Source of the DNA: a virus
Virus record (IMG/VR): IMGVR_UViG_3300024581_000835
Location: 3,622 to 67,621 of that record
DNA: 64,000 nucleotides
Reading direction: 5' to 3' (one strand)
The position numbers were made by a program, and so were the translations under genes. The notes under the pieces were generated by a model. The model did not search any database and was not told the origin of the DNA. It saw only the letters and a program-made list of their open reading frames with translations. This document shows, piece by piece, positions 12,783 to 55,110 of this stretch (position 1 is its first letter; each line of letters opens with the position of its first letter).

Positions 12783-12785
12783 AAC

Positions 12786-27733: not shown

Positions 27734-27809
27734 TGGTACTCCCAAGGGGGTTCGAACCCCTGTTCCCGCCGTGAAAGGGCGGTGTCCTAGACCACTAGAC
27801 GATGGGAGC
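27734..27809 (-). tRNA. trnE: tRNA-Glu(TTC)
   Basis: Cloverleaf, anticodon TTC, GGTTCGAA T-loop, encoded CCA. Confidence 0.97.
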
Positions 27810-27812
27810 AAA

Positions 27813-27889
27813 TGGCGGAATGGACGAGACTCGAACTCGCGACCCCCTGCGTGACAGGCAGGTATTCTAACCAACTGAACTACCACTCC
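27813..27889 (-). tRNA. trnD: tRNA-Asp(GTC)
   Basis: Cloverleaf, anticodon GTC, encoded CCA. Confidence 0.97.
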
Positions 27890-33088: not shown

Positions 33089-33991
33089 TTACTTGCCTAT
33101 AGCATTGCCGTATATGTGAACGTGCACACGGCTGGAATAATTATATCCTCTGGCAATGGCCTCATCGGCAATGTCTGCCTCAGTAATCTTAAGTCCTTCC
33201 AAGGTGCCGCCGACGCCCATGATCCACACAGGATAATCAACACCAGCATCACGGAATGCTTTTGTATGTTCTTCAACTTCACGCCAACTTTCCTCTGACC
33301 CATTTACCACGAACTTTAATTGTCCATGTGGTGTACATTTTGCATACTGTGCAACAAACTCTGGCTTGATAGCACGTTTAGACTTCTCACCTGCTGTGCT
33401 CCACAGTTTAGGCGATAGGCTCCAATACCATTCTCTGTCTGCTACATCTGTGAAATTGTTTTGTATGTAGTAAAACAAGTCGTCGCTTAGTTCACGAGTT
33501 CCGTTTGTTTCTACAGTTACATTGCGTGGGAAGTTATCTCTTCTCTTGAACTCTTCTAACACACCAATGATACCTGGCTGAGTAGGATGTAGTAAAGGTT
33601 CGCCACCGGTGAACACCATGTGTACCCACTGCTTGCTAACAGGATGTTGAAACTTACCGCCTGGTAACAGCGCAGTAAGCTCGTCTACACCTTGTTGCAC
33701 AGTTCTATTTGTGATCAAATGTCTGTACTTTCTACTCCAAGTATATGAACTATCACAGCCTTTGTCAAACACGGGCAAGTCACGTACATCAGTTATGTTA
33801 GAAATATCAATCTCTTCAAACGGTAATTCATATGTATCTGGATTAGTTGGATCTTCTTGTCCAAACCCATGACATTGTAAGTTACACAAAAAGAAGCGCA
33901 TCCACAAACTAGGAATGCCAATATACTGACCTTCCCCTTGTGCTGAGTAAAAAGTTTCGGAATACTTTATGATATCATTCTGAGAGTTCAT
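33089..33991 (-). CDS. queE: 7-carboxy-7-deazaguanine synthase (radical SAM)
   Basis: ETFYSAQGEG, CNLQC...CDS, FTGGEPLL, VETNGT and SPKL; linked to folE. Confidence 0.9.
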   Translation of the reverse strand: MNSQNDIIKYSETFYSAQGEGQYIGIPSLWMRFFLCNLQCHGFGQEDPTNPDTYELPFEEIDISNITDVRDLPVFDKGCDSSYTWSRKYRHLITNRTVQQGVDELTALLPGGKFQHPVSKQWVHMVFTGGEPLLHPTQPGIIGVLEEFKRRDNFPRNVTVETNGTRELSDDLFYYIQNNFTDVADREWYWSLSPKLWSTAGEKSKRAIKPEFVAQYAKCTPHGQLKFVVNGSEESWREVEEHTKAFRDAGVDYPVWIMGVGGTLEGLKITEADIADEAIARGYNYSSRVHVHIYGNAIGK

Positions 33992-34520
33992 TTATAGTGT
34001 CCTCATCTATTTTAAGCCATCTCAGTATCTGCCTTGCTAGCGTTGCATCAACCTTGTGAAACTTTTTTTCAAACTCGCCAAACACACATTCGTGTAGCTC
34101 GCTCATTTTATAATGATCTTGACCTGCTACAATATCAAAACAGCAGTCTGTGATAATTGATTCTAAGCCATATGCATGTTGAGTAGCAGGATTGTCTATC
34201 TCAGGGTGACTCAATCTGCCCAAGCTGAGTAAACTGAGAAACACCCAATCGCTGATGCCTGTTGTTTGTACATCAAACTCTCCATTGTTTTCGTACACAC
34301 TGAGAGTGATAAAATCATCTGATGTTATTTTTCTTACATCTGTCCATGCTTCTGCACATGCATACACTTCGTCCATGTTGATAGCAAACCTACGTTGTAT
34401 CAACCTGTGGTCGCCACCTATGCACAACTGGTCGCAAACATCTGCAATTGGTACACAGTTTCTGTCCAATACCAGTGTATTGCGAGGTCCTCTTGTGCTG
34501 ATCGCCACATTACTTGCCAC
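33975..34520 (-). CDS. Hypothetical protein with possible N-terminal DUF433-like HTH
   Basis: GTG start after AGGAG. VPIADVCDQLCIGGDHRLIQRRFAINMDEVYAC resembles the DUF433 pattern. Confidence 0.5.
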   Translation of the reverse strand: MASNVAISTRGPRNTLVLDRNCVPIADVCDQLCIGGDHRLIQRRFAINMDEVYACAEAWTDVRKITSDDFITLSVYENNGEFDVQTTGISDWVFLSLLSLGRLSHPEIDNPATQHAYGLESIITDCCFDIVAGQDHYKMSELHECVFGEFEKKFHKVDATLARQILRWLKIDEDTINELSE

Positions 34521-35199
34521 ACGCAAACTCCTGCTGTAGTTTGATGTTGTCAAAGAACTCTTTCTTTGTGCCAGGATCATCTTTAAACGCACCACGGAGT
34601 ACTGTTGTTTGTGTAAGTGAACTATGTGCCATAATACCGCGGTTCTCACAACAACCGTGTGTTGCTTGAATGTAAACACCTAAATGTTCTGCACCTGTTG
34701 CTTTTGCAATTTCACGTGCAATATCATTTGCAAGTTCTTCTTGCAGTGTACCACGTCTAGCACACCATTGTGCAATGCGTGTGTACTTGCTGAGTCCGAT
34801 TAGTTTCTCACTAGCAATAATACCAATGTATGCAGTACCTGCTACTGGCTGGTGATGGTGCGAACACATGCTTTTTAGTTCAGAACGTACTACTAGCATA
34901 CCCTCATAACGATCTTCGCTATCGTTAGGAAATGCCGTTGCACTAGGTGCATGATCATAACGTCCTGCCATGATTTCATTGAAGTACATTTTAGCAAGTC
35001 GACGTGCAGTGCCTTCCGAGTTAGGGTCATTGTGTCTATCAATGATTAGACAATCAAGCACCTGCTCAAACGCTTCAGTTGCTTCGTCGATAAGTTGATC
35101 TTTTTCGCCGTCCTGAATAAGGCGACTAATGTTATCACCAGCCCAGAACCGCTTATCAGCGTTCTTGCATCGCTGGATTATTTCTTCGTATTTTTTCAT
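34510..35199 (-). CDS. folE: GTP cyclohydrolase I
   Basis: SMCSHHHQP, GLSKYTR, QEEL, HGCCENRG and TTVLRG. Confidence 0.95.
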   Translation of the reverse strand: MKKYEEIIQRCKNADKRFWAGDNISRLIQDGEKDQLIDEATEAFEQVLDCLIIDRHNDPNSEGTARRLAKMYFNEIMAGRYDHAPSATAFPNDSEDRYEGMLVVRSELKSMCSHHHQPVAGTAYIGIIASEKLIGLSKYTRIAQWCARRGTLQEELANDIAREIAKATGAEHLGVYIQATHGCCENRGIMAHSSLTQTTVLRGAFKDDPGTKKEFFDNIKLQQEFACGK

Positions 35200-35235
35200 G
35201 TATTTTCTCCGAGTTTAAGACGAGGATGTCTTGGT

Positions 35236-36210
35236 TTAGTTTTTATGATTCTTGCTCTCCCATGCCCAAGCATGACTAACAATATCATCGAGACCGTATT
35301 GTGGCTCCCAACCAAATGCTTCTCTGGCTTTGGTGTTGTCCGCCCATGTTTTAGGCGGATCGCCTGCTCTACGTTCTGCAATCGTGTGTGGTACTTGTTC
35401 GCCAGTGATGCGTTCAAATGCATCAATTACTTGTTTCACGCTGTTAGTACCGTTAGCACCAATGTTGAATATGCCGCTTTCGCCGCCGTCATCTAAGTAG
35501 TGCATAGCCGCCAAGTGTGCAGTAGCAATGTCAAACACATGAGTATAGTCTCTTTCACAAGTACCATCTGCTGTGTCGTAATCGTCGCCAAACACTTCGA
35601 ACGGCTCTTTATTTAGAATAGCTCTGCACACAATTGGAATAATGTGGCTAGCCGCTTCTTGATTATAACCGTGTTGCATTTCAGGATCAGCACCTGCCGC
35701 ATTGAAATATCTCAGTGCAGTATAGTTGATGTTGTGTGCAACGGCATAATCTTCTAGCATGTCTTCAACCATGCTCTTGGTTTTACCATATGGACTCATT
35801 GGAGCCTTAGGTGAGTTTTCTGTGGTAGGAAACTCAGTGATGTCACCGTACACGGAACTTGAGCTACTGAATATAAAGTTCTTAACACCGTTACGCACTG
35901 CACTGTTCAGCAGATAGATAGTGTTGCTTACATTGTTCCAGTAAAACACGTCAGGTTCTAACACACTGCGACCAACTTCGTGGTCCGCCGCAAAGTGCAT
36001 GATGGTATCAGGCTTTGTGAGCTTGATAATACCGTCAATCTGCTTGCTTTCAATGTCAAACGGATACAGTGTTACACCTGGTATGTCCTTTTTGCGTCTG
36101 TCAATATTGATCACATTGTGACCACTATCTACCAGCAAGCGACATACCATGCCGCCAATGTAACCACTACCGCCTGTTACTAAAACTGTTTTTTGATCTT
36201 GACTATTCAT
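35236..36210 (-). CDS. galE: UDP-glucose 4-epimerase
   Basis: TGGSGYIG, FSSSSSVYG, YGKTK (YxxxK), LRYFNAAGA and RDYTHV. Confidence 0.92.
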   Translation of the reverse strand: MNSQDQKTVLVTGGSGYIGGMVCRLLVDSGHNVINIDRRKKDIPGVTLYPFDIESKQIDGIIKLTKPDTIMHFAADHEVGRSVLEPDVFYWNNVSNTIYLLNSAVRNGVKNFIFSSSSSVYGDITEFPTTENSPKAPMSPYGKTKSMVEDMLEDYAVAHNINYTALRYFNAAGADPEMQHGYNQEAASHIIPIVCRAILNKEPFEVFGDDYDTADGTCERDYTHVFDIATAHLAAMHYLDDGGESGIFNIGANGTNSVKQVIDAFERITGEQVPHTIAERRAGDPPKTWADNTKAREAFGWEPQYGLDDIVSHAWAWESKNHKN

Positions 36211-37411
36211 ATTTTGCTCTTGCGACATGCTTACGGAAATCCCAATCATTCCTTGCCCATCGCTCTCCGTTACCTTCCAGTACATCTAGTGTACGGTCAA
36301 TTGTACCATTTTGGTATTCTGATATCTTACCAATATTATACTTTGATAAGTCATCGTTGTCAATGCTTTCAAACATTCTTTTTAACTTTTCTACAGCATC
36401 CTCAATACTCCAAGGTGTGTACAAATGGTTGTGATTGTTTGCAAACACTTCTGGAAAACTTCTGTAAGCAGGAAACAGTGTGAGTGTACCAAACGTGTCT
36501 GCCTCACTTACAGTGTTGCTAGTCCAATCTTGTAGTGCACAATTGAACAGCACTTGGCTGTCTGCTAACAGATTGTAGTAGTCATCCTTCTTCAATCCTG
36601 TGTACACTTTTAAGTTTGCTGTGCCCAGTCTGTTGTGTCCGCCTTCATATGCTAATGCTCTAGCAACGTAATCAGCACGGTTGCTTTTCAGTTCCGGGTG
36701 CCCACAGAACACAGCAAATTCTACTTCGGGGTCAATCTTGTAATACGCTTCTGCGAAGTCCATGTAAAAGTCTGGTTGCTTCTCATCGTCCCAACGTGCC
36801 GCAAATGCCACTCGCTTCTTACGATCCTTCAACGGTATGTTAGAGTCAATACGCCCTCTAACTTCGTTTTTACCAAACGGCAATCCTGTTACATAGATTG
36901 GTGCAAGCATACCTGCAATACGCAAGTGTGCCGCAAATTCTTCATTGGCTACACAAATACCACTTACCACATGATCGCACATTTCCTCATACTTTCGCAT
37001 CCAGTGAAACATGCCTTCTCTGATCAAGAAATCATCTGGGTCAGTGGTTTGTGCCAAGAAACGTAAAAACACCTTAGGTCTATATTCAGGTGGAGATTGG
37101 TCCATGATGTATGGCAAGCATTCAATACCGGGAGTGAACATGTCCTCATAGAAGATTACATCATCACTGGTAAGTTCACCATTCTTCATCATTTGAACCA
37201 AGTTCATTGTTTGGCTCAAACTGTAATACGAGCGACCATGAGCATCTAACACGCTACCTGTTACAATAGCCTTGCTGTTGTCGAGTTCTTGACCTGTGAT
37301 AATTTCATAGTCAATTCCACGACGTTTGAACACACGTTCGTTCCAGTCTTGCAGTTGTAAGGTATAGCGAGCCTCGTAACTCTCTAGTCCCATGTAAAAC
37401 AGTTTACGCAT
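36203..37411 (-). CDS. GT-B fold glycosyltransferase (GT4/phage DNA glucosyltransferase-like)
   Basis: AARWDDEKQP and FNCALQDWTSNTVSEADTFG..LFPAYRSFPE, which occupy the positions of the GT4 nucleotide-sugar-binding motifs. Confidence 0.75.
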   Translation of the reverse strand: MRKLFYMGLESYEARYTLQLQDWNERVFKRRGIDYEIITGQELDNSKAIVTGSVLDAHGRSYYSLSQTMNLVQMMKNGELTSDDVIFYEDMFTPGIECLPYIMDQSPPEYRPKVFLRFLAQTTDPDDFLIREGMFHWMRKYEEMCDHVVSGICVANEEFAAHLRIAGMLAPIYVTGLPFGKNEVRGRIDSNIPLKDRKKRVAFAARWDDEKQPDFYMDFAEAYYKIDPEVEFAVFCGHPELKSNRADYVARALAYEGGHNRLGTANLKVYTGLKKDDYYNLLADSQVLFNCALQDWTSNTVSEADTFGTLTLFPAYRSFPEVFANNHNHLYTPWSIEDAVEKLKRMFESIDNDDLSKYNIGKISEYQNGTIDRTLDVLEGNGERWARNDWDFRKHVARAKYE

Positions 37412-37414
37412 AAG

Positions 37415-37606
37415 TTATTTCTCCGAATCTAAATTATTACCATAATCGGTGTTGTCAGGTTTTTCTTCGCCTAGTCCTTCGCCATAATCAACAACATGTG
37501 TAATCTTGTCATCGAGACCCTGTGCATAAGACTTCATACGATCTGCATCGGTCTTAGAGATCTTTTTAGGTGCTGGACTAAACTCGGGTTTGTCTGAACT
37601 AGCCAT
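37415..37606 (-). CDS. Small hypothetical protein
   Basis: TAATG-coupled ORF. Confidence 0.55.
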   Translation of the reverse strand: MASSDKPEFSPAPKKISKTDADRMKSYAQGLDDKITHVVDYGEGLGEEKPDNTDYGNNLDSEK

Positions 37607-37785
37607 TACATTGAGTTCTTTTTGTCTTGAATTTCAGCACGTCGAGTCTTAGCAAGTTTGCCAAGTTCGCCAAGTGCCTTTCTAGCTCTAGCCGCAGATG
37701 CTTTAACACCTTTGGTTTCAAACTTTTCATTTTCGTCGAGGTATTCCTCAAAAAACTTTTTAATTTGTAAATGAGTCTCTGTCAT
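37606..37785 (-). CDS. Histone H1-like (Hc1-type) small basic protein
   Basis: KGVKASAARARKALGELGKLAKTRR motif; SD AGGAG. Confidence 0.65.
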   Translation of the reverse strand: MTETHLQIKKFFEEYLDENEKFETKGVKASAARARKALGELGKLAKTRRAEIQDKKNSM

Positions 37786-37802
37786 TTTATTCTCCTTAGT
37801 TA

Positions 37803-38177
37803 TTATCCTGTTACAGGATATTCCATTTCGCAACCGTTCTCATTATCTTCGGCTACTGAAATCTTTAACCAGCGATTGGGGTACATTGCTTGTACATGCT
37901 CCGCTAGTTCATCTGCAATCATTTCACAACTCTTGTAATCCAATTGCAATGTGTCTTGTGCATACAGTCTTTCCATCCATCTCTTGAACTGTATAAATTC
38001 TACGTCTCTGTCATCATGAAACACTTCAAGCCATACTTTAAAGTGAAAGATGTGTCTATGTGGATAACCTAAGAAACTTACATCATCCCAATCGCCCGTT
38101 GCTAGATTAGGATCCTCCAGTGCCGCTGGATACTTGTGTATCCCCTCCTTCTGAAACGTTACCCAAATGCTTCTCAT
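37803..38177 (-). CDS. T-fold QueD-like protein (LxxxHRHxF variant, DpdL-like)
   Basis: LGYPHRHIF, SCEMIA and EDNENG; lacks the QueD CxxxHGH motif. Confidence 0.75.
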   Translation of the reverse strand: MRSIWVTFQKEGIHKYPAALEDPNLATGDWDDVSFLGYPHRHIFHFKVWLEVFHDDRDVEFIQFKRWMERLYAQDTLQLDYKSCEMIADELAEHVQAMYPNRWLKISVAEDNENGCEMEYPVTG

Positions 38178-38458
38178 GTGTTGTCTCCGTCGAAGTACTT
38201 GACTTTGCTTTTATCAAATACGCCTGTCTTTGTTGTCGAAGTCGCATTTGACTTCTGTTGATTTGTGTTTGTCTCCACGCTCGCTTCATTGTTGGCATCT
38301 CCAATAGGCCTGTCGTAATAATCTGTTAAACCTGCACGTTGTCTTGCTTTCTTCTCGCTTACTAACACACTGCTCATGTATGCAAAAAAACCTGCAACTA
38401 CCACAAGAAGCAAACCAAAAATAAAATTAACTACTGTCATAAAGGCTTCAATCATCAT
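38174..38458 (-). CDS. Small membrane protein
   Basis: N-terminal TM helix. Confidence 0.6.
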   Translation of the reverse strand: MMIEAFMTVVNFIFGLLLVVVAGFFAYMSSVLVSEKKARQRAGLTDYYDRPIGDANNEASVETNTNQQKSNATSTTKTGVFDKSKVKYFDGDNT

Positions 38459-38633
38459 TGTATTCCTCTAAGATATCTAACAATTCATCAGGAAACTCGG
38501 CGCCTAGTACACCGAGGAAATCAACCATACTGAGAAAAACTTCCTGTAAGTTTTCCTCTGACTTTAAGTCGTCTACATTTATCACAGTAGATATTTCAGA
38601 TCTACCTTTTTTACTGCTAAGAGTTATTTCCAT
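38448..38633 (-). CDS. Small acidic hypothetical protein
   Basis: Tiling ORF. Confidence 0.55.
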   Translation of the reverse strand: MEITLSSKKGRSEISTVINVDDLKSEENLQEVFLSMVDFLGVLGAEFPDELLDILEEYNDD

Positions 38634-38642
38634 AGTTTTATA

Positions 38643-38903
38643 TTATACATTATTTTTAGATCCTGTCAACCTAAAATACTTGATCAAACCATACACGCTG
38701 AGAGAGAACCAAAACACTTCTATCACCATGCTTGCAAGGTTAAAATTATAAAGCAGGCTAACAGTTACCAATACTGCTACCACTGCGTTGTTAAAACTGT
38801 ACCAAAAGCCTTTGGGGTCTATGCGATCAAACTGCAATAAACCGTATGTGGTTATAAGTAATGCCACACCTAATAGCCCAACTGCATCTGGTAATCCTAT
38901 CAA
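38643..38903 (-). CDS. Three-TM membrane protein (CBU_0592-like)
   Basis: GLLGVALLITTYGLLQ...YSFNN...NLASMVIEVFW pattern. Confidence 0.6.
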   Translation of the reverse strand: MIGLPDAVGLLGVALLITTYGLLQFDRIDPKGFWYSFNNAVVAVLVTVSLLYNFNLASMVIEVFWFSLSVYGLIKYFRLTGSKNNV

Positions 38904-39406
38904 TCTATTACCTCATCTGACGTGTATTTGGTCCAATCAGTGAATGTGGACCTATCCATGAGATCGTGTAAACTATGACACCAAACACCAGGATTGGTTG
39001 CACGGAAATCTCTGTCGTCAATCTTTAACGTGGTGTTGTAGTTAAACTGTTTGATGTAAGGCAACTTAACACTGATCATAGGAATAAAGTTATCATACTC
39101 AGTTGGACCGCCTTCCAACAACTGCTCTGCATGCTTAACGTCTAAGTCAAGTGTTACCCAAATGTCATCACGCAAAAGATCAAGGATAAGATTATCCCAT
39201 TGTATCCACTCCTCGTTGCTTTGAGGATCAAAACTTTGATTTGCACCCAAGTAAATATGTGGACAAGCATTATTCAATGCTCTTGCAAGGATTTCTTCTT
39301 TTGGTTGTAGTCCAACCACAAACAGAGTTCGTTGCCCAAATGCAGGTGACTTTTCTACTTCGGTGCCAACAAAGTATGTGTTGTTTTCGTGTCCTTCTCT
39401 GTTCAT
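38900..39406 (-). CDS. Hypothetical protein in the dpd operon
   Basis: GTEVE..TLFVVG, HIYLGANQSF and KIDDRDFRATNPGVWCH. Confidence 0.75.
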   Translation of the reverse strand: MNREGHENNTYFVGTEVEKSPAFGQRTLFVVGLQPKEEILARALNNACPHIYLGANQSFDPQSNEEWIQWDNLILDLLRDDIWVTLDLDVKHAEQLLEGGPTEYDNFIPMISVKLPYIKQFNYNTTLKIDDRDFRATNPGVWCHSLHDLMDRSTFTDWTKYTSDEVID

Positions 39407-39407
39407 A

Positions 39408-39596
39408 TTACCACCTAGTGTAACCTAGCCTTTCTAGATACTGCTGTTTGGTAACAGCCTCATCAATGTTTATATTTAGGCAAGGCATGGTTGCGTCATT
39501 GAAAATTTCCGTCACCTTTACAGTTTCATCATCATTGACTTGAAAGTGCACAATATGCCCTTCGCACTCGTAATGCCCTGACCAAATAGTTTTCAT
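39408..39596 (-). CDS. Small hypothetical protein
   Basis: ATGA-coupled ORF. Confidence 0.55.
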   Translation of the reverse strand: MKTIWSGHYECEGHIVHFQVNDDETVKVTEIFNDATMPCLNINIDEAVTKQQYLERLGYTRW

Positions 39597-39910
39597 AGAT
39601 CCGCCTCTTTAACAAACACCCCATCAACCATCTTGCCTTTGCGATCTTTGATGTCATTGTATGCAACTTCCAGGCACTCAGTTAAACTGAGGTTGTTGCG
39701 TTCAGCAATGTTAATCAGCACAACCATCATGTCACCGATATCGTCCTTGATGTCACGCTCTTTGCAGATGTTGTCGCTGAGTTCACCTGCTTCTTGAATC
39801 AATTTAGCAAACTGTGTTTTGTCGTCACTGCCTTGAATCAAGTTACGATCATAGTGCCACTGCTTTACCATTTCGCATAGTACAATTAATCTTTCGCCTT
39901 CAACAGTCAT
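39593..39910 (-). CDS. mazG: MazG-like NTP pyrophosphohydrolase
   Basis: KLIQEAGEL, DDIGDMMVVL, AYNDIKDRKG. Confidence 0.85.
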   Translation of the reverse strand: MTVEGERLIVLCEMVKQWHYDRNLIQGSDDKTQFAKLIQEAGELSDNICKERDIKDDIGDMMVVLINIAERNNLSLTECLEVAYNDIKDRKGKMVDGVFVKEADL

Positions 39911-41476
39911 TTAAAATCCCTCAAAGAATGTTCCAATTACTTCTTCTTTAACACCGTCATCCTCGCCACCCATACTAAAGTGTGCAAGCATGTCTGCATG
40001 CTTTTTGATAAGTTCTCTGGCATTTGTGCATGCAGGGTCTAACACAGTTTCCACAAAGTTCTGGAAGTACAGAATATTAACAGGCACATAAGGAGATACC
40101 TCTTGTGCTTTACTGCTCTTCTTCTCTGGCTTCCTCCAATTATTGAAGTCTACTGCTTCTCTGTAACGCTCAACATCTGCCAGTCTATTTGCTTCCTGCA
40201 CAGCATCAATGTGGTTGAACACACTGTGACCCATGTAGTACAAATAACTTTGTGTATCCCAACTGGTGCTGTCACGCTCTGCAAACAGTTGATTACCTTG
40301 TGCATCCAACTTGGGTTTGCCTTCCTTGTCTACCAACGGCTGACCTTCTGCTAACTTCATATTACCATTCTTGTCCAAGTCGCCTGCTGACATAGGGCAT
40401 AAGTCACCCATTGTGAGTCTGCTCATCACAGGCGAATGCCCAAACGGTGCAGGCAAGTCACTGTCCTTGAATGACTGCTGATCAAATGCACGATCCATAA
40501 AGTAGCCAAACTTACCAGGCTCAAAGAAGTTGTGTGCATAGGTTTGACCATATGCAGTGTTAACAAATGGCGATGCGGCATCGAAGCTCAACGTAATGTT
40601 TGGGTTATCATGCAATCTCAACTGTCTCTGTATAGCAGTTAGGAAACAGGCCCATTGCAGTTTACCGGTACCTAAGAAGTGTATCCAATCTTTGCCTTCC
40701 AGCAAACCATCTTGTCTTAGATCTAATAGACGGTTCAGCACACAACTTAGGTCTTTCATGTTGATACCAGCAAAGGCGTAACCTTCGAGTGCCCTGCTTG
40801 CATCGCCGTAACCTTCAGCAACAAACGAAGGATCACTAAAGCATTTAACAGAGTCATACCACTGTTTGCTAGTTGCTTCGTCTGTGCCACTTAGCACATT
40901 GAGAAACTTTGTTGCACCCGGTACACGGTTACGCACAAAGTAATCCAAGTTCAATAAACTGATGTCTAGTGTGTCTTCAAATCTTGTCAAGCCTGTTTTT
41001 TTGCTCAGTGGTTCTACTGCGGCAAAGGCTGGAATGTCTAATGTCATACTCCAGTCTGCTGTGTGTTCTAACCAACGTAGAATACTTTCGCACATCTTTG
41101 TACGAGCAGGATCGCTTGGATCCTTTGCGTTTGTCCAATCCAGTTTAAGTACACCTGTAGCGATCTGGAATCCACCGGAGTCGCCTAAGATAACTTTTAC
41201 AGTATTACGATCACGCTCTTGAATCATAGGCTCAGCATCGTGGCTTTTGTCGATGTCGAGGTGTGCGTGACCTGCTGAATATAATCCGTAAGGATAATGA
41301 AAGTAACTATTTTGTGCTTGTAGGAAATCCAAGCCCTCATTACCGTGTTCGAAACCTGCAGGAACTCGACTTTCTGCTTTTTTCTTGTTGCAGATTTTGT
41401 CCAACTGCTTAGTATAGAAACTACTGATCGCAGGGAGATAAACTGCGTAGTCTCTTTGTCTTTTGCCTAAATCCAT
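39911..41476 (-). CDS. dpdA: DNA deazaguanine transglycosylase (TGT-fold, DpdA-like)
   Basis: ILGDSGGFQI, MTLDIP, IHFLGTG and SFDAASPF; co-located with folE and queE. Confidence 0.85.
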   Translation of the reverse strand: MDLGKRQRDYAVYLPAISSFYTKQLDKICNKKKAESRVPAGFEHGNEGLDFLQAQNSYFHYPYGLYSAGHAHLDIDKSHDAEPMIQERDRNTVKVILGDSGGFQIATGVLKLDWTNAKDPSDPARTKMCESILRWLEHTADWSMTLDIPAFAAVEPLSKKTGLTRFEDTLDISLLNLDYFVRNRVPGATKFLNVLSGTDEATSKQWYDSVKCFSDPSFVAEGYGDASRALEGYAFAGINMKDLSCVLNRLLDLRQDGLLEGKDWIHFLGTGKLQWACFLTAIQRQLRLHDNPNITLSFDAASPFVNTAYGQTYAHNFFEPGKFGYFMDRAFDQQSFKDSDLPAPFGHSPVMSRLTMGDLCPMSAGDLDKNGNMKLAEGQPLVDKEGKPKLDAQGNQLFAERDSTSWDTQSYLYYMGHSVFNHIDAVQEANRLADVERYREAVDFNNWRKPEKKSSKAQEVSPYVPVNILYFQNFVETVLDPACTNARELIKKHADMLAHFSMGGEDDGVKEEVIGTFFEGF

Positions 41477-41479: not shown

Positions 41480-42235
41480 TTAGTTCTTCGCAGGTAGTAA
41501 GTATGTGTATTCACCAATGCCGCTGTCTACTTTGATCTGTAGCAAGCCTTTTGCATTGAAACTCATAACAATGTTTGCATTGTCGCCTAAACGTAAAATC
41601 TTTAATGCTACATCCAGTGGCCAATGAAACTCGTGTGTCATTGAACCTTCAACTCCTTCTGCAATCAACACTTTGGTTCTGTCGCCGCCGTTGTCGCCAA
41701 TGTAGAAGTACAATTTGTTGTCCTCAGTACGTGGCGAGAACGTGCTCTCAAAAGCGCCTAACACGCTGTTAAAATAACCTAACTCCTTGAGATTCTTTGC
41801 ACTAGGCACAATATTCACATCAAACTCTGCGCCTTTGAATGTGATGTCTTTGAGCTGTTGATTAACTACATCTGCTAACATAAAACGATAGTGTGCATCT
41901 GTGCCTTCTTGGCTAACAAACTTTACTTCAACTGGTACATCGGCGCCATTACGTTCCTGTGTTACTACTTCTACTGTTGCATCCTCATCATCGAATCCTG
42001 GAAAACGCAAGTAGCCGTCTAACACGCTCATGCGACTTAGTCCAACTGTTGATTCAACAAAGTCAGGAACTGGGTTAATAGTTTTGCCTTTGAAGATCAC
42101 AGTTTTATCTGCATCCACAGTTTCAATAGTGGTCTCTTCCACTGTGCCTTTTACTTTGACCATCTCAAAGATACCCAAACTGTGCGTGTGTTTGAGAACA
42201 TCTTTCAGTGTGTCTTTGATATAATTGTTAGCCAT
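41480..42235 (-). CDS. DNA polymerase sliding clamp (gp45/PCNA-like)
   Basis: About 250 aa, all-beta/alpha pattern, ends GEYTYLLPA; lies beside polB. Confidence 0.7.
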   Translation of the reverse strand: MANNYIKDTLKDVLKHTHSLGIFEMVKVKGTVEETTIETVDADKTVIFKGKTINPVPDFVESTVGLSRMSVLDGYLRFPGFDDEDATVEVVTQERNGADVPVEVKFVSQEGTDAHYRFMLADVVNQQLKDITFKGAEFDVNIVPSAKNLKELGYFNSVLGAFESTFSPRTEDNKLYFYIGDNGGDRTKVLIAEGVEGSMTHEFHWPLDVALKILRLGDNANIVMSFNAKGLLQIKVDSGIGEYTYLLPAKN

Positions 42236-42573: not shown

Positions 42574-45255
42574 TTAAAAATCAAAAAACTCTTGCAGTGC
42601 TTCACTCTCGTTCATCCTATCCAAGTCCCAATTCATTGCACCCAGCACATTCTTTATCTTTTTGTTGAGTACGCTTTCTTCCATTGCTTCATCATCAAAC
42701 GGCATCTGCTTGAACCAGTCTGGCAGTTGTAGTTCATCAGTGGGGTACGCTATGCTGGCATAGCCCATTGCATTACTTTTGAGCTTGCACACAATCACTT
42801 TCATACCGTCAGTGATAGTCATGCTGTAGTTGTCGCTCATTGCTTGTTTGATTTCGTTCCAGTTGATGCTTGCTCTAACATGCCCAGGTATCATGTTGTT
42901 CTCGGGTGCTTGGTCTGTAAGTCGCTTCAACTTATAATTTCGAGTTTCTACACGTCGTTGTTTTGCCAACTTTTCGCCGTACATGGTGAGATTGTTTACA
43001 CGCTTGGGCATGCCTTTTAACCAAGGATTCATACCTTGGAATTCTTTCTTAAAGTCTTTGATCTTTTGTAGTACATCGCTCTCGCTCACACCTTCTAGTG
43101 CATTGTCTAATATCTCTTCTAAGAAGTCTTGTATAAACTCAGGAGTGTCTGAACGCTTGATGTCCATGCCCATGATCTTGAGCTTGCCGCCTTCTGGTTG
43201 CCAGCCTTCTAGATCCAACACTTTGATGGCATAACGCTTCTTGGTAATAAAAAGTCCTGCTCGTCCAACTACTTCTCTGCCTGCTTTCATCACTGCACCC
43301 ATATCCTTGGGCACGTTGAATTTATCCTTCAGCATCTGTGGGAAGGTGTCACTGACAGTATCTGAAATATGATCGTACAGTGCTACTGCACTGTCTAAGT
43401 CTAATTGTTGTCCGGGCTCCAGGGCAGGGGTTGCTGTGAAATACACTGAGTCTGTATCACCATATATGATACATTCCCCCGTATGGTCATAGGAGCCGGT
43501 AAGCATTCTGTTTGTTTCGGCACCCATGTGCTTAGTAATGGCTCTTCCTGTAAGTGTTGTGGATTGACCAATCCGCTTATCGAAAAAACGGCAGCCAGGA
43601 TTAAGGATAGCACCGTACAAACTGTTAAGGTTAATCTTTTTAACCAACTGTCGTTTGTCCCAAAACGCTTTGTCCGCATCAGTTGTTGCATCTTTTTTCT
43701 TTGCTTGTAAGTCTTTACGCTCCGCATACCATCTCTCCAATAGTCCGGGCACAATGCCCTGGAAGTCTGTTTTAAAGATAGTACCGTTAGCACTGATATT
43801 CCAAGGTTGCCCTGAATTAAAAATTAAATTATAGACGTCTGCTCCAGTTACTTCTACTGTAGTACCGTCCTCCATGTCCAAATGCATAGTGTGGTTAACG
43901 TCCTTGCTCATAACCATTTCGTATTCATTTGAACCAAACTTGCCTAACCATGCATCTGCAAATGACTTCTTCTCCAGTGTCATTTTATTTTTGACTTCTT
44001 CCTCTGTGTAGTCCTGACGCAGTTGCCCCACAATAGTCTCTGGAGCCATATTAAGTGCACGGAACACACTTGGATACAGACTGTTCAAGTCCATCGAGCC
44101 CACCCATTCGTGGAATCCTTTTTTGGGGAAGGCAACATAAGCACCTGCGGCCTGTGTGTTACCACGCTCTTCACGTTTGCGATCTGGTACAACATAACCA
44201 CGTCTGTGACTTTCATTGATGATTGCTTGTTCTGTGGTCGCCACTGCACCCATTGTGGTTGGAAGTAGCACAGTGTTGTCGTGTGCAATAGTGTTAGCAA
44301 GATCAATAAACTGTAGTTTCTTATCCAGTTTATCCAACAGCATGACGTCTTGAATGTTGTATTCTAAGAACTTCTTGAAATCATGATTGTACAGTTTATC
44401 CAGTGATCCTTCATAGGCTACTTTCTTTTCGCCTACTTCCATCTCACCAATGTAGTCTAGTCTGTAACTGTGTCGTTCTTCATAGTTGTATTTGCGATAC
44501 AGTTGCATATAGTCCAAGTGCACACGACCTAAGATGTCATAGCTTTGCCGTTCTGCACCAAACGCTTCGTATGTGCGCTCTCTGGGAAACTGATCCCACA
44601 AACACATTCTGCGAGTTTCGCCTTTGCCCATCACTTTGATGATGCGGTTAATGGTGTAAGGAATATCATAGCCCTCACTGTTCCAGCCACTCAGTATGTC
44701 AGCATCTTCAATTAGTGTGAGGAATGTGTTCAGCATTTCTTTTTCAGACTTGAACAGTATTACCTCAGGCATGTCTGCAACAATAGCTTCGGCTTGTTCC
44801 CAACTTAGAGTCTTGGGAGGCACAGCCAAACACACCATTGCATCCATCCACTGCAAGTACACACCAATAGATGTAATCTCCATGAATGCATCTTCAGGTG
44901 AACTGTAACCACGTTCTGGATCAAAGTCCACCTCGATGTCGAAAAATGCTGTTTGTAGTATCGGAGGTTCAGCACCGTTGTAGTGCTTGGCTATTGTTTT
45001 GTTTAGTGGCTTGATGTCGCTTTCGAATGTTTTGTTGCCTTTGTTGATAGCAACATTCTTACGAAACTCTTTGACGTTTTTACACCGCACTTCTTGTACA
45101 GCTTCGCCATAGATGCTTTTGTGTGATCCTCTGGGATCAGCAATGTAAAAATTGTATTCGGGCTTGTGGTCTACTAGAATGCGTTTACCATCTACACGCT
45201 CAACCACTCGAATCAGATCGAGTTTCTTATCGTAGATTGCATCTACATAACTCAT
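42574..45255 (-). CDS. polB: Family B DNA polymerase (gp43-like)
   Basis: Exo motifs FFDIEV, GWNSEGYDIPY and YNIQDV; pol motifs DLNSLYP, KINLNSLYG and YGDTDS. No intein. Confidence 0.97.
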   Translation of the reverse strand: MSYVDAIYDKKLDLIRVVERVDGKRILVDHKPEYNFYIADPRGSHKSIYGEAVQEVRCKNVKEFRKNVAINKGNKTFESDIKPLNKTIAKHYNGAEPPILQTAFFDIEVDFDPERGYSSPEDAFMEITSIGVYLQWMDAMVCLAVPPKTLSWEQAEAIVADMPEVILFKSEKEMLNTFLTLIEDADILSGWNSEGYDIPYTINRIIKVMGKGETRRMCLWDQFPRERTYEAFGAERQSYDILGRVHLDYMQLYRKYNYEERHSYRLDYIGEMEVGEKKVAYEGSLDKLYNHDFKKFLEYNIQDVMLLDKLDKKLQFIDLANTIAHDNTVLLPTTMGAVATTEQAIINESHRRGYVVPDRKREERGNTQAAGAYVAFPKKGFHEWVGSMDLNSLYPSVFRALNMAPETIVGQLRQDYTEEEVKNKMTLEKKSFADAWLGKFGSNEYEMVMSKDVNHTMHLDMEDGTTVEVTGADVYNLIFNSGQPWNISANGTIFKTDFQGIVPGLLERWYAERKDLQAKKKDATTDADKAFWDKRQLVKKINLNSLYGAILNPGCRFFDKRIGQSTTLTGRAITKHMGAETNRMLTGSYDHTGECIIYGDTDSVYFTATPALEPGQQLDLDSAVALYDHISDTVSDTFPQMLKDKFNVPKDMGAVMKAGREVVGRAGLFITKKRYAIKVLDLEGWQPEGGKLKIMGMDIKRSDTPEFIQDFLEEILDNALEGVSESDVLQKIKDFKKEFQGMNPWLKGMPKRVNNLTMYGEKLAKQRRVETRNYKLKRLTDQAPENNMIPGHVRASINWNEIKQAMSDNYSMTITDGMKVIVCKLKSNAMGYASIAYPTDELQLPDWFKQMPFDDEAMEESVLNKKIKNVLGAMNWDLDRMNESEALQEFFDF

Positions 45256-49578: not shown

Positions 49579-49776
49579 TTAATTTTTTGGTGACGGTATT
49601 ATACCATTCTCCCAATTTTCCTTAACGTCCTCTGCATAATGTATATTATGATTTCCGAGGCATCTACGCTCGACGAGTTGATCGTTTTCGTACAACATTA
49701 CAACCCACTCAGTATCAGGCCCCCGGGAAGAGTTTCCTCCCCTGATACTTTTTCTAATTTGTGCTCTACGAGCCAC
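49579..49776 (-). CDS. Small hypothetical protein
   Basis: Fills the gap between the GT and aceA genes; start uncertain. Confidence 0.45.
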
Positions 49777-50857
49777 GTATGTATTCCATTGGGTCTTTGG
49801 TCCAATCAAATTCATATATAGGATTTTCCTTTCCGAATGCTTTTGGCTTTAACAGTTTTTGTTCTAAGTCTATGCCGCTCCACTTTGCAAAATCTTTTAG
49901 TGTGCGTTCAGTACCTAATCCGTACTCACCAGTTACTTTACCGGTGTATACATCTCTTTGTCTCAGTTTGCCCTGTTCAGCTAACACAGTCCACGCTGTC
50001 TTTAGTTGGTGATTTCCGCTCCAGTGATTTTGATGTGCTTTGTACTCTGGTGCATAATAATGTCTAATAGGATAACCACCTCTTCTGTGAAACACGTTCC
50101 ACCCTCGGGTCCATGCTTTTACAACAGCCAGTTGTTCCTCGCCAGAAAAGTAAGTTCTTTCATCCCAGGGTACTTCCTTGATGAAACTACCTAATGTAAA
50201 TGTGCCACCTCCGCTGAATCCATATCCATGGGCGTACGGTTGCTCAGCATCATATACATGATCGGAACCAAAGAACCAAATGTAGTTATCTGCTTCGTTT
50301 TGAAATTCTACATGACATTGTCCCGGATGAATCAATTTACCTTTGCTGTTCTTTTTTACATCACCGGCACCAACCATCATGACAATGATGTTGTCTGTGC
50401 CAGTTGGCTCGAAAAATTCAGGTAATGGATTAGCAATAGGGTCATCGTCTTTTGCTTCCATGCTTTCAGGATAGCAAGTGATGATAGGTTTCTCATGATA
50501 CTGCATCAACTCTTCCATGGATTTGATGTACTTGGTATCCCAACCTTTTTCAAATCCGGTGTGCGAATCAATCTGTAAATAATACTTTTGGTCTGTGTAT
50601 TCTCGTTGTGCTAGTGATCGAGCCCAACTACAACCTCTGCTGTCTGTGGGACTATACAGTTTGTAGTGTGTTTGCTTTTTCCATTGTGCTAATTGAGGAT
50701 TTGTCCAGTCTAGAGCATGCTCAGGATATTCCTGTTCGATGATGCTCATGGTGATGTTTTCAGGGTTATCAGCATTGCCAAAACAGTTGCGAACAGTGTA
50801 TTCCAACAGCGGGTCGCAAAGAGATGGAATGCCTACATAGATAGAGTTAGTGTCCAT
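49766..50857 (-). CDS. GT-A glycosyltransferase, GT60/Skp1-hydroxyproline GlcNAc-transferase-like
   Basis: IYVGIPSLCD, SRGCSWARS, YYLQIDSHTGF..GWD and YFSGEE..AWTRGW. Confidence 0.8.
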   Translation of the reverse strand: MDTNSIYVGIPSLCDPLLEYTVRNCFGNADNPENITMSIIEQEYPEHALDWTNPQLAQWKKQTHYKLYSPTDSRGCSWARSLAQREYTDQKYYLQIDSHTGFEKGWDTKYIKSMEELMQYHEKPIITCYPESMEAKDDDPIANPLPEFFEPTGTDNIIVMMVGAGDVKKNSKGKLIHPGQCHVEFQNEADNYIWFFGSDHVYDAEQPYAHGYGFSGGGTFTLGSFIKEVPWDERTYFSGEEQLAVVKAWTRGWNVFHRRGGYPIRHYYAPEYKAHQNHWSGNHQLKTAWTVLAEQGKLRQRDVYTGKVTGEYGLGTERTLKDFAKWSGIDLEQKLLKPKAFGKENPIYEFDWTKDPMEYIRGS

Positions 50858-52026: not shown

Positions 52027-52101
52027 TGGCAGACGAGCACGGATTCGAACCGCGACCACGAGTTTTGGAGACTCACATGCTACCGTTAACACCACTCGCC
52101 T
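52027..52101 (-). tRNA. trnW: tRNA-Trp(CCA)
   Basis: Anticodon loop CTCCAAA; encoded CCA end. Confidence 0.93.
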
Positions 52102-52179
52102 TTACTACTCTGGATCTTGCTTGTTATAGAAGTATCTCTTCCAATACTCTCAAGACCCAGATATCTACACTCCAATACT

Positions 52180-52270
52180 TGGCGGAGAAGGAGGGATTCG
52201 AACCCTCGAAAGGCTACTAACCTTTGCCGGTTTTCAAGACCGGTGCATTCAACCACTCTGCCACCTCTCC
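52180..52270 (-). tRNA. trnS: tRNA-Ser(TGA)
   Basis: Anticodon TGA, long variable arm, encoded CCA. Confidence 0.96.
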
Positions 52271-52275
52271 GTACT

Positions 52276-52351
52276 TGGTAGGACTGGATGGAGTTGAACC
52301 ATCTACCTCCCGCTTATAAGACGGATGCTCTCACCGTTGAGCTACAGTCCC
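52276..52351 (-). tRNA. trnI: tRNA-Ile(TAT)
   Basis: Anticodon loop CTTATAA, A73, encoded CCA. Confidence 0.9.
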
Positions 52352-52629
52352 TCTTCTCCAGCAGGAGGTGCCTCATAGTCTGTGGGCAACTTATATCCTG
52401 TTGGGTACTTTGACAATGTTAATTTCTCTCCGTCCCATACACACCATATGTCTCTGACGCCAACTGTGAAGTGATGTGCTTCATAATCACCTAACAGAGA
52501 CTCTGGCAGTATTTCTCCTGTGCGCTTATCACGCATAGGCCCAGTGCCAATGATGTATTCCACTCTGGCGCCGCCCCATCTGTTCCATGCATCTTCGATA
52601 AGATCGAAGCAGTCTACCATGTGTTCCAT
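52342..52629 (-). CDS. Hypothetical protein between tRNAs (starts MEHMVD)
   Basis: Start moved to 52629 to exclude tRNA-Val. The last 10 nt overlap the tRNA-Ile 5' end. Confidence 0.6.
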   Translation of the reverse strand: MEHMVDCFDLIEDAWNRWGGARVEYIIGTGPMRDKRTGEILPESLLGDYEAHHFTVGVRDIWCVWDGEKLTLSKYPTGYKLPTDYEAPPAGEEGL

Positions 52630-52643
52630 ACTGTTTCCTAATT

Positions 52644-52719
52644 TGGTGGTCACTGCTGGGTTCGAACCAGCGACCCTCGCCTTGTAAGGGCGATGCTCTC
52701 CCAACTGAGCTAAGTGACC
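52644..52719 (-). tRNA. trnV: tRNA-Val(TAC)
   Basis: Anticodon loop CTTACAA; encoded CCA. Confidence 0.96.
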
Positions 52720-52724
52720 TTATT

Positions 52725-52801
52725 TGGTGGGCCTTGTAGGACTTGAACCTACGACCTGCCGATTATGAGTCGGATGCTCTAACCAACTGAGCTAAAGGCC
52801 C
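52725..52801 (-). tRNA. tRNA-CAT, probably Ile2 (lysidine type) rather than Met
   Basis: Anticodon CAT. Acceptor GGGCCTT has the C4-G69 and C5-G68 pairs that TilS reads in enterobacterial tRNA-Ile2. Confidence 0.8.
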
Positions 52802-52807
52802 TAAACT

Positions 52808-52882
52808 TTAATCGTCCTCGCCATCAATGATGACCCACGTTACAAATATTGCTACAGCAATAATACCGAGTACAAACTCCAT
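52808..52882 (-). CDS. 24-aa single-TM micro-protein (MEFVLGIIAVAIFVTWVIIDGEDD)
   Basis: TAATG-coupled to the upstream ORF. Confidence 0.4.
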   Translation of the reverse strand: MEFVLGIIAVAIFVTWVIIDGEDD

Positions 52883-53157
52883 TACTTACTTACCTTTTTA
52901 ATCATCAGACCATTATCAGTTTGCTCAACACACACAGTGTCGCCTGGCTTTATGTTAGCCGCTTTGCATACCTCTGGAGGAATGTTCATCAGCACGTGAT
53001 CCTCATCTCCGGGAATGTCTTCGAACAGGTCTTCGGACCTCACAGTGAGGCCATCAAAGTTTAGGTCATGCTTGATCAGTTTGTAAGTTTGCCAACCACA
53101 GTATACTACTACAACACATATAATCACAAACAACGGTAACAAATATAATGGATCCAT
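52882..53157 (-). CDS. Membrane-anchored protein with AbrB/SpoVT-like C-terminus
   Basis: N-terminal TM helix; IPPEVCKAANIKPGDTVCVEQTDNGLMIKK. Confidence 0.6.
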   Translation of the reverse strand: MDPLYLLPLFVIICVVVVYCGWQTYKLIKHDLNFDGLTVRSEDLFEDIPGDEDHVLMNIPPEVCKAANIKPGDTVCVEQTDNGLMIKKVSK

Positions 53158-53172
53158 TGTGCTCTCCTCATT

Positions 53173-53248
53173 TGGTGCCGGCAGAGAGAATCGAACTCCC
53201 GACCTGATGCTTACAAGGCAACTGCTCTACCTGCTGAGCTATACCGGC
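53173..53248 (-). tRNA. trnT: tRNA-Thr(TGT)
   Basis: Anticodon loop CTTGTAA; encoded CCA. Confidence 0.96.
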
Positions 53249-53253
53249 ATGTT

Positions 53254-53329
53254 TGGCTCCGCGACCTGGGCTCGAACCAGGGACCGATGGATTAACAGTC
53301 CATTGCTCTACCAACTGAGCTATCGCGGA
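53254..53329 (-). tRNA. trnN: tRNA-Asn(GTT)
   Basis: Anticodon loop CTGTTAA; encoded CCA. Confidence 0.96.
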
Positions 53330-53375
53330 ATAAATTGTTGCCTCTCATTTTACCCTGGGAGAGGCACACCAGAAT

Positions 53376-53462
53376 TGGTACCAGTGGCCGGACTCGAACC
53401 GGCACAGCATTTCTGCCGAGGGATTTTAAGTCCCTTGTGTCTACCAATTTCACCACACTGGC
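53376..53462 (-). tRNA. trnL: tRNA-Leu(TAA)
   Basis: Anticodon TAA, long variable arm, encoded CCA. Confidence 0.96.
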
Positions 53463-53603
53463 ATGTTTTGTTACTTAGTTGAATAGGCCCCGCTTGCCTT
53501 ATTTGTTTCGGCTCCAACGCACATCACGACTCCGGTATGTAGAGTTAACATACAAAATCCTTTGCCGCCTATTCTTGCCCTTAAAATATTACCCTCTTTT
53601 GTT

Positions 53604-53680
53604 TGGTCGGAGAAGCAGGATTCGAACCTACGACCCCCTGCTCCCAAAGCAGGTGCTCTACCAAGCTGAGCTATACTCCG
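53604..53680 (-). tRNA. trnP: tRNA-Pro(TGG)
   Basis: Anticodon loop TTTGGGA; encoded CCA. Confidence 0.96.
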
Positions 53681-53839
53681 TTATACTCGGACCGCCTTAA
53701 TGCTGTCCAATCCAGTGCCAGTGTAACGACTTGCACCACCATGCTTCATGTAATACTGCTCACGAGCACTGTACTCACTCATCGCCCTGACATACCCTTT
53801 GCTACTACCGCTAACAAAAATTTCCCAAATGTAAATCAT
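53681..53839 (-). CDS. Small hypothetical protein (52 aa, MIYIWEIFVSG...)
   Basis: Not in the ORF track. SD AGGAG; sits between tRNA-Arg and tRNA-Pro. Confidence 0.6.
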   Translation of the reverse strand: MIYIWEIFVSGSSKGYVRAMSEYSAREQYYMKHGGASRYTGTGLDSIKAVRV

Positions 53840-53891
53840 CTTCTACTCCTTGTGCAAATGGCGTCTACTGTTTTCAACGCATTCACTTCTT

Positions 53892-53968
53892 TGGCACGCC
53901 CGGCTGGACTCGAACCAGCAACCTACAGCTTAGAAGGCTGTTGCACTATCCAATTGTGCTACGAGCGC
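53892..53968 (-). tRNA. trnR: tRNA-Arg(TCT)
   Basis: Anticodon loop CTTCTAA; encoded CCA. Confidence 0.96.
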
Positions 53969-53976
53969 ATTAAACT

Positions 53977-54396: not shown

Positions 54397-54405
54397 TGTA
54401 GTCTC

Positions 54406-55095: not shown

Positions 55096-55110
55096 TCTGC
55101 ACTCCTAATT

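Follow-up and report, generated by a model that had tools for sequence, protein, structure and literature searches.

FolE, QueD and QueE make 7-carboxy-7-deazaguanine (CDG) from GTP, and enzymes of the DpdA type exchange guanine (G) in DNA. To our knowledge, the 7-deazaguanines known in DNA carry small groups at C7 or none, and the natural glycosylations known in DNA sit on hydroxymethyl-pyrimidines. Here we describe a gene run at positions 33089-41476, on the minus strand, of a 64,000-nucleotide (nt) stretch of viral DNA (hereafter the window; bases 3622-67621 of the linear, 70,146-bp IMG/VR virus record IMGVR_UViG_3300024581_000835), in which a glycosyltransferase (GT) of the GT-B fold and a GalE epimerase stand among genes of the deazaguanine pathway. 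The system would be a variant of the deazaguanine modification known from DpdA and DpdL, extended by the transfer of a sugar. The explanation that we favour as a whole, with a confidence somewhat better than even, is that of a replication-linked DNA hypermodification module producing glycosylated 7-deazaguanine.

One of the closest described counterparts is the system of Cellulophaga phage phiST (Hutinet, Cui et al., NAR 2023, PMC10516641), in whose DNA 7-deaza-2'-deoxyguanosine (dDG) replaces every G. DpdL, which Hutinet et al. put forward in 2023 as the CDG decarboxylase, shows the signature LxxxHRHxF where QueD has CxxxHGH, and is thought to act on the free base (PMC10516641). As in the phage studied here, phiST combines FolE, QueD, QueE, DpdL and a DpdA-type enzyme without QueC, and a MazG-like gene adjoins DpdL. 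However, phiST has no member of the GT family in its whole genome and no GalE in the cluster, its product is plain dDG, and its DpdA3, of 259 amino acids (aa), is not detectably similar to the 521-aa DpdA-like protein of the window.

A second relative is the Pseudomonas jumbo phage PA5oct (Wroclawvirus), whose locus EST35_0316-0322 shares with the window the block of B-family DNA polymerase, clamp and DpdA (the last with 52% identity, EST35_0316), QueE, a member of the GT family (EST35_0317, profile E 7e-41) and DpdL (EST35_0318, 60% identity). Contrary to the window, its GT has only 353 aa and is approximately 22% identical to the GTs of relatives, a full GalE is missing, and the genes are annotated as hypothetical. 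PA5oct DNA resists restriction enzymes with G in their recognition sites, a modification that the study did not identify, and a defence nuclease sensing modified G restricts this phage (PMC12191111).

The alpha- and beta-glucosyltransferases of phage T4 (AGT and BGT), which act on 5-hydroxymethylcytosine (hmC), offer a further parallel, being phage GT-B enzymes that use a UDP-sugar on a non-canonical base after replication. They differ in that neither is among the top 50 fold matches of the window's GT in the Protein Data Bank (PDB), that the partner hydroxymethylase gene is absent from the 70-kb record and from a complete relative (G003), and that the presumed acceptor here is a purine analogue without a hydroxyl.

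Outside phages, the huimycin pathway includes HuiG, a GT4-type enzyme (PF13439) encoded next to FolE, QueD and QueE, which glycosylates the 7-deazaguanine base at its exocyclic 2-amino group (PMC7439116). This is the only documented enzymatic glycosylation of the 7-deazaguanine ring system that our literature search found. Huimycin and the dapiramicins are, in contrast, natural products of cellular organisms (Kutzneria and Streptomyces), with neither DpdA nor DNA involved; the substrate of HuiG is a free O-methylated preQ0 base, and its likeness to the phage GT is drawn from the description of HuiG. Galactosyl- and mannosyl-queuosine of animal tRNA also carry a sugar on a 7-deazaguanine derivative inserted by an enzyme of the tRNA-guanine transglycosylase (TGT) family. 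Here, however, the nucleic acid is RNA and the sugar is borne by the cyclopentenediol of queuosine; lacking QueC, QueF and QueA, the phage pathway cannot make it.

The record is approximately 20% complete (CheckV), and complete relatives with terminal repeats measure 353-365 kb; judged from these sequences, the record is a fragment of a ~350-kb uncultured marine jumbo phage. As only about 20% of the genome is covered, gene absences in the window mean little. The backbone is akin to that of PA5oct, in which DNA polymerase, the clamp-like protein of 251 aa, the 521-aa protein, the T-fold protein, QueE and RNase H all have matches in identical order, and the deazaguanine module is flanked by DNA polymerase and clamp on one side and by RNase H on the other. 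When the region was compared with 50,697 phage records by megablast, no match appeared. Marine metagenomes, including those of Tara, hold thousands of close homologues each of the GT, of the 521-aa protein and of a 168-aa protein of the same run, and the phage lineage is abundant. The genes central to the argument are the following:

39911-41476, minus strand: DpdA-like guanine transglycosylase of a divergent subfamily, 521 aa (TGT fold, catalytic motifs)
37803-38177, minus strand: DpdL, a QueD paralogue (motif LGYPHRHIF; phrog_17812)
36203-37411, minus strand: GT-B (GT4-like) glycosyltransferase (structural model with a pLDDT of 94.6, GT-B fold)
35236-36210, minus strand: GalE, UDP-glucose 4-epimerase (TIGR01179, 355.6 bits against a cut-off of 262.3)
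34510-35199, minus strand: FolE, GTP cyclohydrolase I (PF01227, E 3e-39; phrog_2197)
33089-33991, minus strand: QueE-like radical SAM enzyme (phrog_2076, E 5e-51 over the full length)

A preliminary description of this DNA, made from the letters alone, had presented 33089-41476 as a single tight minus-strand run, and every ORF (open reading frame) that it named is found in its place in the ORF list. The overlap that it reported between the stop of the GT gene (36203-36205) and the start of galE amounts to 8 nt when the ATG at 36210 is used, which is also the start used in relatives, and the gap of 36 nt between the end of galE (35236) and the start of folE (35199) is likewise as described.

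The gene at 37803-38177, however, had been taken for a QueD-like T-fold gene, and this name has to be replaced: the motif LGYPHRHIF fits the DpdL signature, with H40, R41, H42 and F44 invariant in the family alignment, and tblastn relates the protein to the founding DpdL members of phages ACP17 (56% identity, E 3e-40) and phiST (CGPG_00067, 34% identity, E 8e-8). Neither does it supply the QueD of a FolE-QueD-QueE set. The PTPS/QueD profile (PF01242) finds no match in the 70-kb record, and a canonical QueD is encoded elsewhere in all four near-complete relatives. A QueC in relatives was considered and rejected, the profile giving only short, partial PP-loop matches. The QueE-like protein is 35% identical to the annotated QueE of PA5oct, and its matches to the NCBIfam QueE equivalogs and to Pfam Radical_SAM all lie below the cut-offs. 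The gene set as a whole fits the DpdL type, with FolE, QueE and a DpdA-like enzyme in the window, QueD in the relatives and no convincing QueC. With the T-fold gene being DpdL, the set most likely produces 7-deazaguanine without a substituent, and the pathway, as read from these genes, would most likely be of the phiST type, leading from GTP through CDG to 7-deazaguanine.

The association of the GT with this pathway is carried by gene neighbourhood, which was counted at the 80 best IMG/VR GT loci (54-88% identity). At 78 of these, a DpdL gene occurs no further than 3 kb from the GT, both exceptions being contigs cut next to the GT, while GalE is found in 64, a DpdA-like gene in 62 and FolE in 55. 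These loci represent two backbones, the jumbo type with polB, clamp and DpdA, and a T4-like cyanophage type, to which the cultured Synechococcus phage BUCT-ZZ01 belongs and in which the genes run UvsW, sigma factor, QueE, FolE, exonuclease, a second weak GT, a 428-aa DSGGLQ protein, DpdL, GT, GalE, QueD and gp47/46-like genes. The tie between GT and DpdL spans 23-88% identity, and the two genes are often translationally coupled. Among cultured phages, the GT stands beside DpdL in PA5oct (EST35_0317), ACP17 (gp124), Phosso, Xanthomonas phage X1, Burkholderia phage BCSR5 and BUCT-ZZ01. Five distant GT representatives (32-42% identity), on unrelated small contigs, all have a DpdL-profile match beside the GT with L...HRH.F intact; four of them also carry QueD, QueE or FolE, and the contig of the fifth is only 4.4 kb long. 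In prokaryotes, a scan of 185,579 species genomes with a 9-sequence GT alignment found the GT on only seven contigs, all from metagenome-assembled genomes (MAGs), with DpdL just upstream in all six full-length copies.

Counted in the reverse direction, the GT lies within 10 kb in 73 of the 80 IMG/VR loci whose DpdL is closest to that of the window; four of the remaining seven are cut contigs. The other three (L130, L165 and L167), whose DpdL is 69-73% identical to the window's, have no GT within the available 6-10 kb, which points to loss or relocation of the GT even among close relatives. A profile search that recovered the GT in four positive controls found no family member in the whole genomes of phiST, RHph_I1_18, Ahp1, Bakedbeans, D479 and MA9V-3, all of which possess DpdL. 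As far as these sequences go, the GT depends on DpdL but not the reverse: wherever enough flank is available the GT has DpdL with it, and DpdL can stand alone. Since the GT needs DpdL, while GT-free phiST makes plain dDG, the GT most likely acts after DpdL. A co-occurrence check set beforehand gave the same picture, the family travelling with DpdL, FolE, QueE and DpdA-type genes and not with pathways for hmC or 5-hydroxymethyluracil (hmU). We hold it highly probable, on these counts, that the GT is linked to the DpdL-type deazaguanine pathway.

The GT itself was examined through a structural model (pLDDT 94.6, pTM 0.92), which shows a GT-B fold with two Rossmann-like domains and finds more than 500 PDB matches at E < 1e-3, led by BshA, MshA, PimA, PglA and glycogen synthase; in the model, the nearest folds are thus those of retaining GT4 enzymes. 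A single-sequence PDB search found nothing. The family comprises 824 clusters at 50% identity, some relatives carry precomputed PF00534 matches, and R206, E210, K211 and E303 are invariant in a 44-sequence alignment, R206, K211 and E303 among them being candidate donor-binding residues. A complex prediction for GT and DpdL scored 0.00, which is no evidence either way. Matches in Xanthomonas and Erwinia jumbo phages (23% identity, E about 1e-3) were set aside as a different GT4 family, since they adjoin GlmS and a deacetylase.

As to the sugar, the 33 best PDB matches of GalE are all GalE proteins. GalE adjoins the GT in 64 of the 80 loci, on two different backbones, and the 8-nt overlap between the two genes is kept on both. 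The gatekeeper position (Cys307 in human GalE, Tyr299 in that of Escherichia coli) is Thr in the window's protein, by alignment with human Cys307; because Thr is not the bulky Tyr, the enzyme may supply UDP-GalNAc as well as UDP-galactose, and the transferred sugar could accordingly, from the sequence, be either a hexose or an N-acetylhexosamine (HexNAc).

The 521-aa protein is the least conventional member of the set. It has no match in Pfam (PF01702 included), PHROG or NCBIfam, and a single-sequence PDB search returned nothing. Its AlphaFold model, of moderate quality (pLDDT 74), nevertheless retrieves with Foldseek tRNA-guanine transglycosylases as all of its top 50 PDB matches (E about 1e-5, Foldseek probability 1.00, TM by target about 0.55). 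The catalytic-Asp motifs GDSGGFQ (residues 98-104) and SFDAASP (297-303) are both invariant in 15 homologues. With hhalign, the protein matches the DpdA of the ACP17/X1 type with a probability of 47% and an E of 2e-4 over a span in which the catalytic motifs align, and phiST DpdA3 with a probability of 10%. It thus falls outside the described DpdA subfamilies (PF01702, DpdA1-4), and the model supports its placement in a divergent, as yet unnamed DpdA-type subfamily. By analogy, it would exchange G for 7-deazaguanine in DNA. Wherever the length of the contig permits, a DpdA-type enzyme with the motif DSGG[F/L]Q adjoins the DpdL-GT pair, and these neighbours are of at least three sequence types, those of PA5oct and the window, of ACP17, X1 and BUCT-ZZ01, and of BCSR5. 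As several types accompany the pair, the GT tracks the base-making enzyme rather than a particular inserting enzyme.

In the pathway that we propose, FolE and QueE, together with a QueD encoded elsewhere in the genome, would convert GTP into CDG, from which DpdL would strip the carboxyl group to leave 7-deazaguanine. The divergent TGT-fold DpdA-like enzyme would swap guanine in the phage DNA for this base, and the GT4-like GT-B enzyme would put a sugar on the deazaguanine, probably after its insertion into DNA, with GalE, translationally coupled to the GT, supplying UDP-galactose or UDP-GalNAc. The phage DNA would end up with a glycosylated 7-deazaguanine that hampers the nucleases of the host. 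That the product is a sugar-bearing deazaguanine in DNA has, in our judgement, roughly an even chance. The bolder claim that guanine in the phage DNA is replaced by a sugar-bearing 7-deazaguanine, which would be the first glycosylated purine known in natural DNA, is put forward tentatively and at a little under even weight. A literature search, which did not cover the 2024 MMBR review (PMC10966956), brought up neither a glycosylated 7-deazaguanine in DNA nor a description of this GT family.

The preliminary description had already suggested a galactosyl-type sugar on the deazaguanine. From the linkage, GT and GalE do belong to the module, but 7-deazaguanine has no hydroxyl, and O-glycosylation as on hmC is therefore not simply transferable here. 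The strict need for DpdL, which frees C7, leaves room for a C-glycoside at the pyrrole carbon; such a C7 C-glycoside, instead of a huimycin-like attachment at the 2-amino group, is speculation on our part.

Several points weigh against a glycosylated deazaguanine in DNA. The sugar on the base, the presence of that base in DNA and the identity of the sugar as galactose are all inferred from gene neighbourhood and fold, and the presumed acceptor offers no hydroxyl to the sugar. The structural neighbours of the GT are generic small-molecule GT4 enzymes and not DNA glucosyltransferases, and its score against Pfam Glycos_transf_1 (19.6 bits) lies below the curated cut-off of 26.4. The window presumably holds a ~20-kb glycan-building island (3-19847) and a GT60-like gene (49766-50857), both taken unchecked from the preliminary description, and these could be other users of the GalE product. 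On the short contigs L087, L089 and L092, which bear distant copies of the GT, no DpdA was recognised by motif, Pfam or hhalign. The decarboxylation by DpdL is proposed in the literature, and dpdL plus dpdA, of phiST as well as of ACP17, yielded no dDG in E. coli (PMC10516641).

The strongest of the other explanations is that the GT acts on a free small molecule, whether 7-deazaguanine, CDG or an intermediate of the pterin kind from the pathway, and that the glycoside, an end product or passing intermediate like huimycin or dapiramicin, is never part of DNA. The closest fold neighbours of the GT include small-molecule enzymes such as BshA, MshA, LmbT, SenB and tetrahydrobiopterin glucosyltransferase, HuiG is a GT4-type enzyme that glycosylates the free 7-deazaguanine base (PMC7439116), and the frequent translational coupling would pair the GT with a DpdL thought to work on the free base. 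Even so, all sufficiently long contigs have a transglycosylase of the DpdA type along with the pair, the module lies between DNA polymerase/clamp and RNase H, the DNA of PA5oct is itself modified at G (PMC12191111), and a free glycoside has no obvious benefit for a lytic phage. We consider this explanation unlikely, while giving it more weight than any other alternative.

It is also unlikely that GT and GalE are unrelated to deazaguanine, serving instead the glycosylation of a virion protein, a phage glycan or the host envelope, and clustered here by the timing of expression. The putative glycan island and the GT60-like gene mentioned above, the role of GalE as a general supplier of UDP-Gal, and fold neighbours that are ordinary cell-envelope GT4 enzymes would all suit this explanation. 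However, chance cannot explain an adjacency seen in at least six cultured lineages, in 78 and 73 of 80 loci in the two directions of counting and in all five distant representatives. The DpdL-GT pair moreover occurs on unrelated backbones without the glycan island, and the very few prokaryote copies of the GT, seven in the 185,579 species genomes, stand beside DpdL in all six full-length cases.

An improbable alternative would keep the pair together while denying the sugar, the GT-fold protein being an accessory of DpdL or DpdA (a nucleotide-binding partner or scaffold) and the final base plain dDG. It draws on the failure of ACP17 dpdL and dpdA, expressed without the GT (gp124), to give dDG in E. 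coli (PMC10516641), as well as on the shorter GT copies of PA5oct, ACP17 and Phosso (342-363 aa), which the family profile matches in two pieces. Against it, phiST reaches full replacement by dDG without a GT and its genes failed in E. coli too (PMC10516641), R206, K211 and E303, the candidate residues for donor binding, do not vary, and a conserved, coupled GalE makes sense only with sugar transfer.

We regard it as very improbable that the TGT-like enzyme and the GT modify tRNA, giving a glycosylated deazaguanosine at position 34 of tRNAs with GUN anticodons. The window encodes 13 tRNAs on its minus strand (27734-27889 and 52027-55924), including tRNA-Asp(GUC) and tRNA-Asn(GUU), which belong to the anticodon class that receives queuosine in cells, and the solved structures nearest to the 521-aa protein are tRNA-guanine transglycosylases. 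Yet 7-deazaguanine is without the cyclopentenediol that bears the sugar in galactosyl- and mannosyl-queuosine, and the dpdA-like gene stands beside polymerase and clamp, with MazG adjoining. In addition, the phiST DpdL system places dDG in DNA (PMC10516641), and PA5oct, with the same DpdA type as the window, has G-modified DNA (PMC12191111).

Least credible of all is glycosylation of hmC or hmU as in T-even phages, with the gene for the base-forming enzyme in the 80% of the genome that lies outside the record. Four of five large relatives do encode an enzyme of the thymidylate-synthase family (PF00303), but with scores (266-350 bits) typical of ordinary thymidylate synthases. G003, a complete relative of 352,754 bp with terminal repeats, carries the full cluster without any PF00303 match, the GT tracks DpdL, not ThyA-like genes, and T4 AGT and BGT are absent from its top 50 fold matches. 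The earlier statement that no hmC- or hmU-forming gene is visible agrees with the lack of a PF00303 gene in the 70-kb record, which covers about 20% of the genome, and an hmC or hmU target is made unlikely by G003.

If a glycosylated deazaguanine were indeed the product, it would join two strategies, glycosylation and deazaguanine substitution, and so add a class of base not seen before. Its presence would alter recognition by restriction, CRISPR and type IV defence systems as well as the sequencing chemistry of these phages, and, given thousands of variants in marine metagenomes, it would be common in the sea. The DpdL-GT pair is present in six cultured lineages, and phiST, with DpdL, no GT and plain dDG, provides a natural control. 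The GT step may also explain why ACP17 dpdL and dpdA failed in E. coli, and may account for the G modification of the therapy candidate PA5oct.

Around these central genes, the block contains the following further features:

42574-45255, minus strand: B-family DNA polymerase, with which the conserved block linked to replication begins (52% identity with the split DNA polymerase of PA5oct; PF03104/PF00136 in relatives)
41480-42235, minus strand: probable sliding clamp, 251 aa (42% identical to PA5oct EST35_0314; in 62 of the 80 GT loci)
39593-39910, minus strand: MazG-like nucleotide pyrophosphohydrolase (PF03819, 23.2 bits against a cut-off of 22; phrog_715, E 3e-37)
39408-39596, minus strand: uncharacterised ORF of 62 aa (62-aa gene at the equivalent position in relatives)
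38900-39406, minus strand: conserved uncharacterised protein of 168 aa, the p168 family (4602 homologues; in 52 of the 80 GT loci)
38643-38903, minus strand: membrane protein of 86 aa (an 84-aa counterpart in relatives matches PF26604 CBU_0592)
38174-38633, minus strand: two small uncharacterised ORFs of 61 and 94 aa (poorly conserved, in 1-2 of the 80 loci)
37606-37785, minus strand, within an ORF at 37606-37833: Hc1-like, histone H1-like DNA-binding protein (PF07432, E 9e-10; 59-aa gene at the same place in relatives)
37415-37606, minus strand: acidic uncharacterised ORF of 63 aa (in 6 of the 80 loci)
33975-34502, minus strand, within an ORF at 33975-34679: uncharacterised protein of about 175 aa between folE and queE, start uncertain (175-aa gene here in relatives)

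The start of the Hc1-like gene at 37785 is deduced from gene length in relatives. The gene between folE and queE had been called DUF433-like; the ORF is there, but the label goes back to a weak Atlas lead with a score of 0.76. Regarding the clamp, PA5oct EST35_0314 (L002:6912-7658) is annotated as a structural protein, and the gene at the same position in phage Phosso as a sliding clamp; for both EST35_0314 and the 251-aa protein of the window, a sliding clamp probably suits the position after the polymerase better. The isoelectric points give no information on DNA binding, because all these phage proteins, the polymerase included, are acidic.

The p168 protein has no match in Pfam, PHROG, NCBIfam, Atlas or PDB, profile search included. 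Its family, very abundant and highly conserved, is restricted to the marine jumbo group and ACP17 gp122, and has E16, E18, N56, D87, K128, D130, D131 and W142 as invariant residues.

Some relatives differ from the window in their gene content. A 154-aa phosphoribosyltransferase (PF00156, E 6e-14) lies between galE and folE in three of them (L004:12221-12685, also L005 and L006) and in the BUCT-ZZ01 cluster (L001:4093-4554); it is found in 27 of the 80 loci overall, but not in the 70-kb record. Its role may be to return guanine set free by DpdA towards GTP, or to make a deazaguanine nucleotide. The small phage contig L089, which carries GT, QueD, QueE and FolE, encodes at 9381-10607 a 408-aa protein with a domain of the uracil-DNA-glycosylase superfamily (PF03167, E 3e-24), which may be the base-exchange enzyme of that lineage. 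On a MAG contig labelled Chloroflexi (L110:7908-8339), only the C-terminal third of the GT (residues 284-402) is found, with no DpdL nearby, and this fragment may be a broken copy or an assembly join. Finally, in clusters of the cyanophage type, a second and distant GT-B protein (447-457 aa) is encoded two genes upstream of DpdL (L042:6903-8276; BUCT-ZZ01, L001:6010-7353), with weak Glycos_transf_1 matches and a family-profile E of 2e-8, which hints, from the sequence, at two sugar transfers in that lineage.

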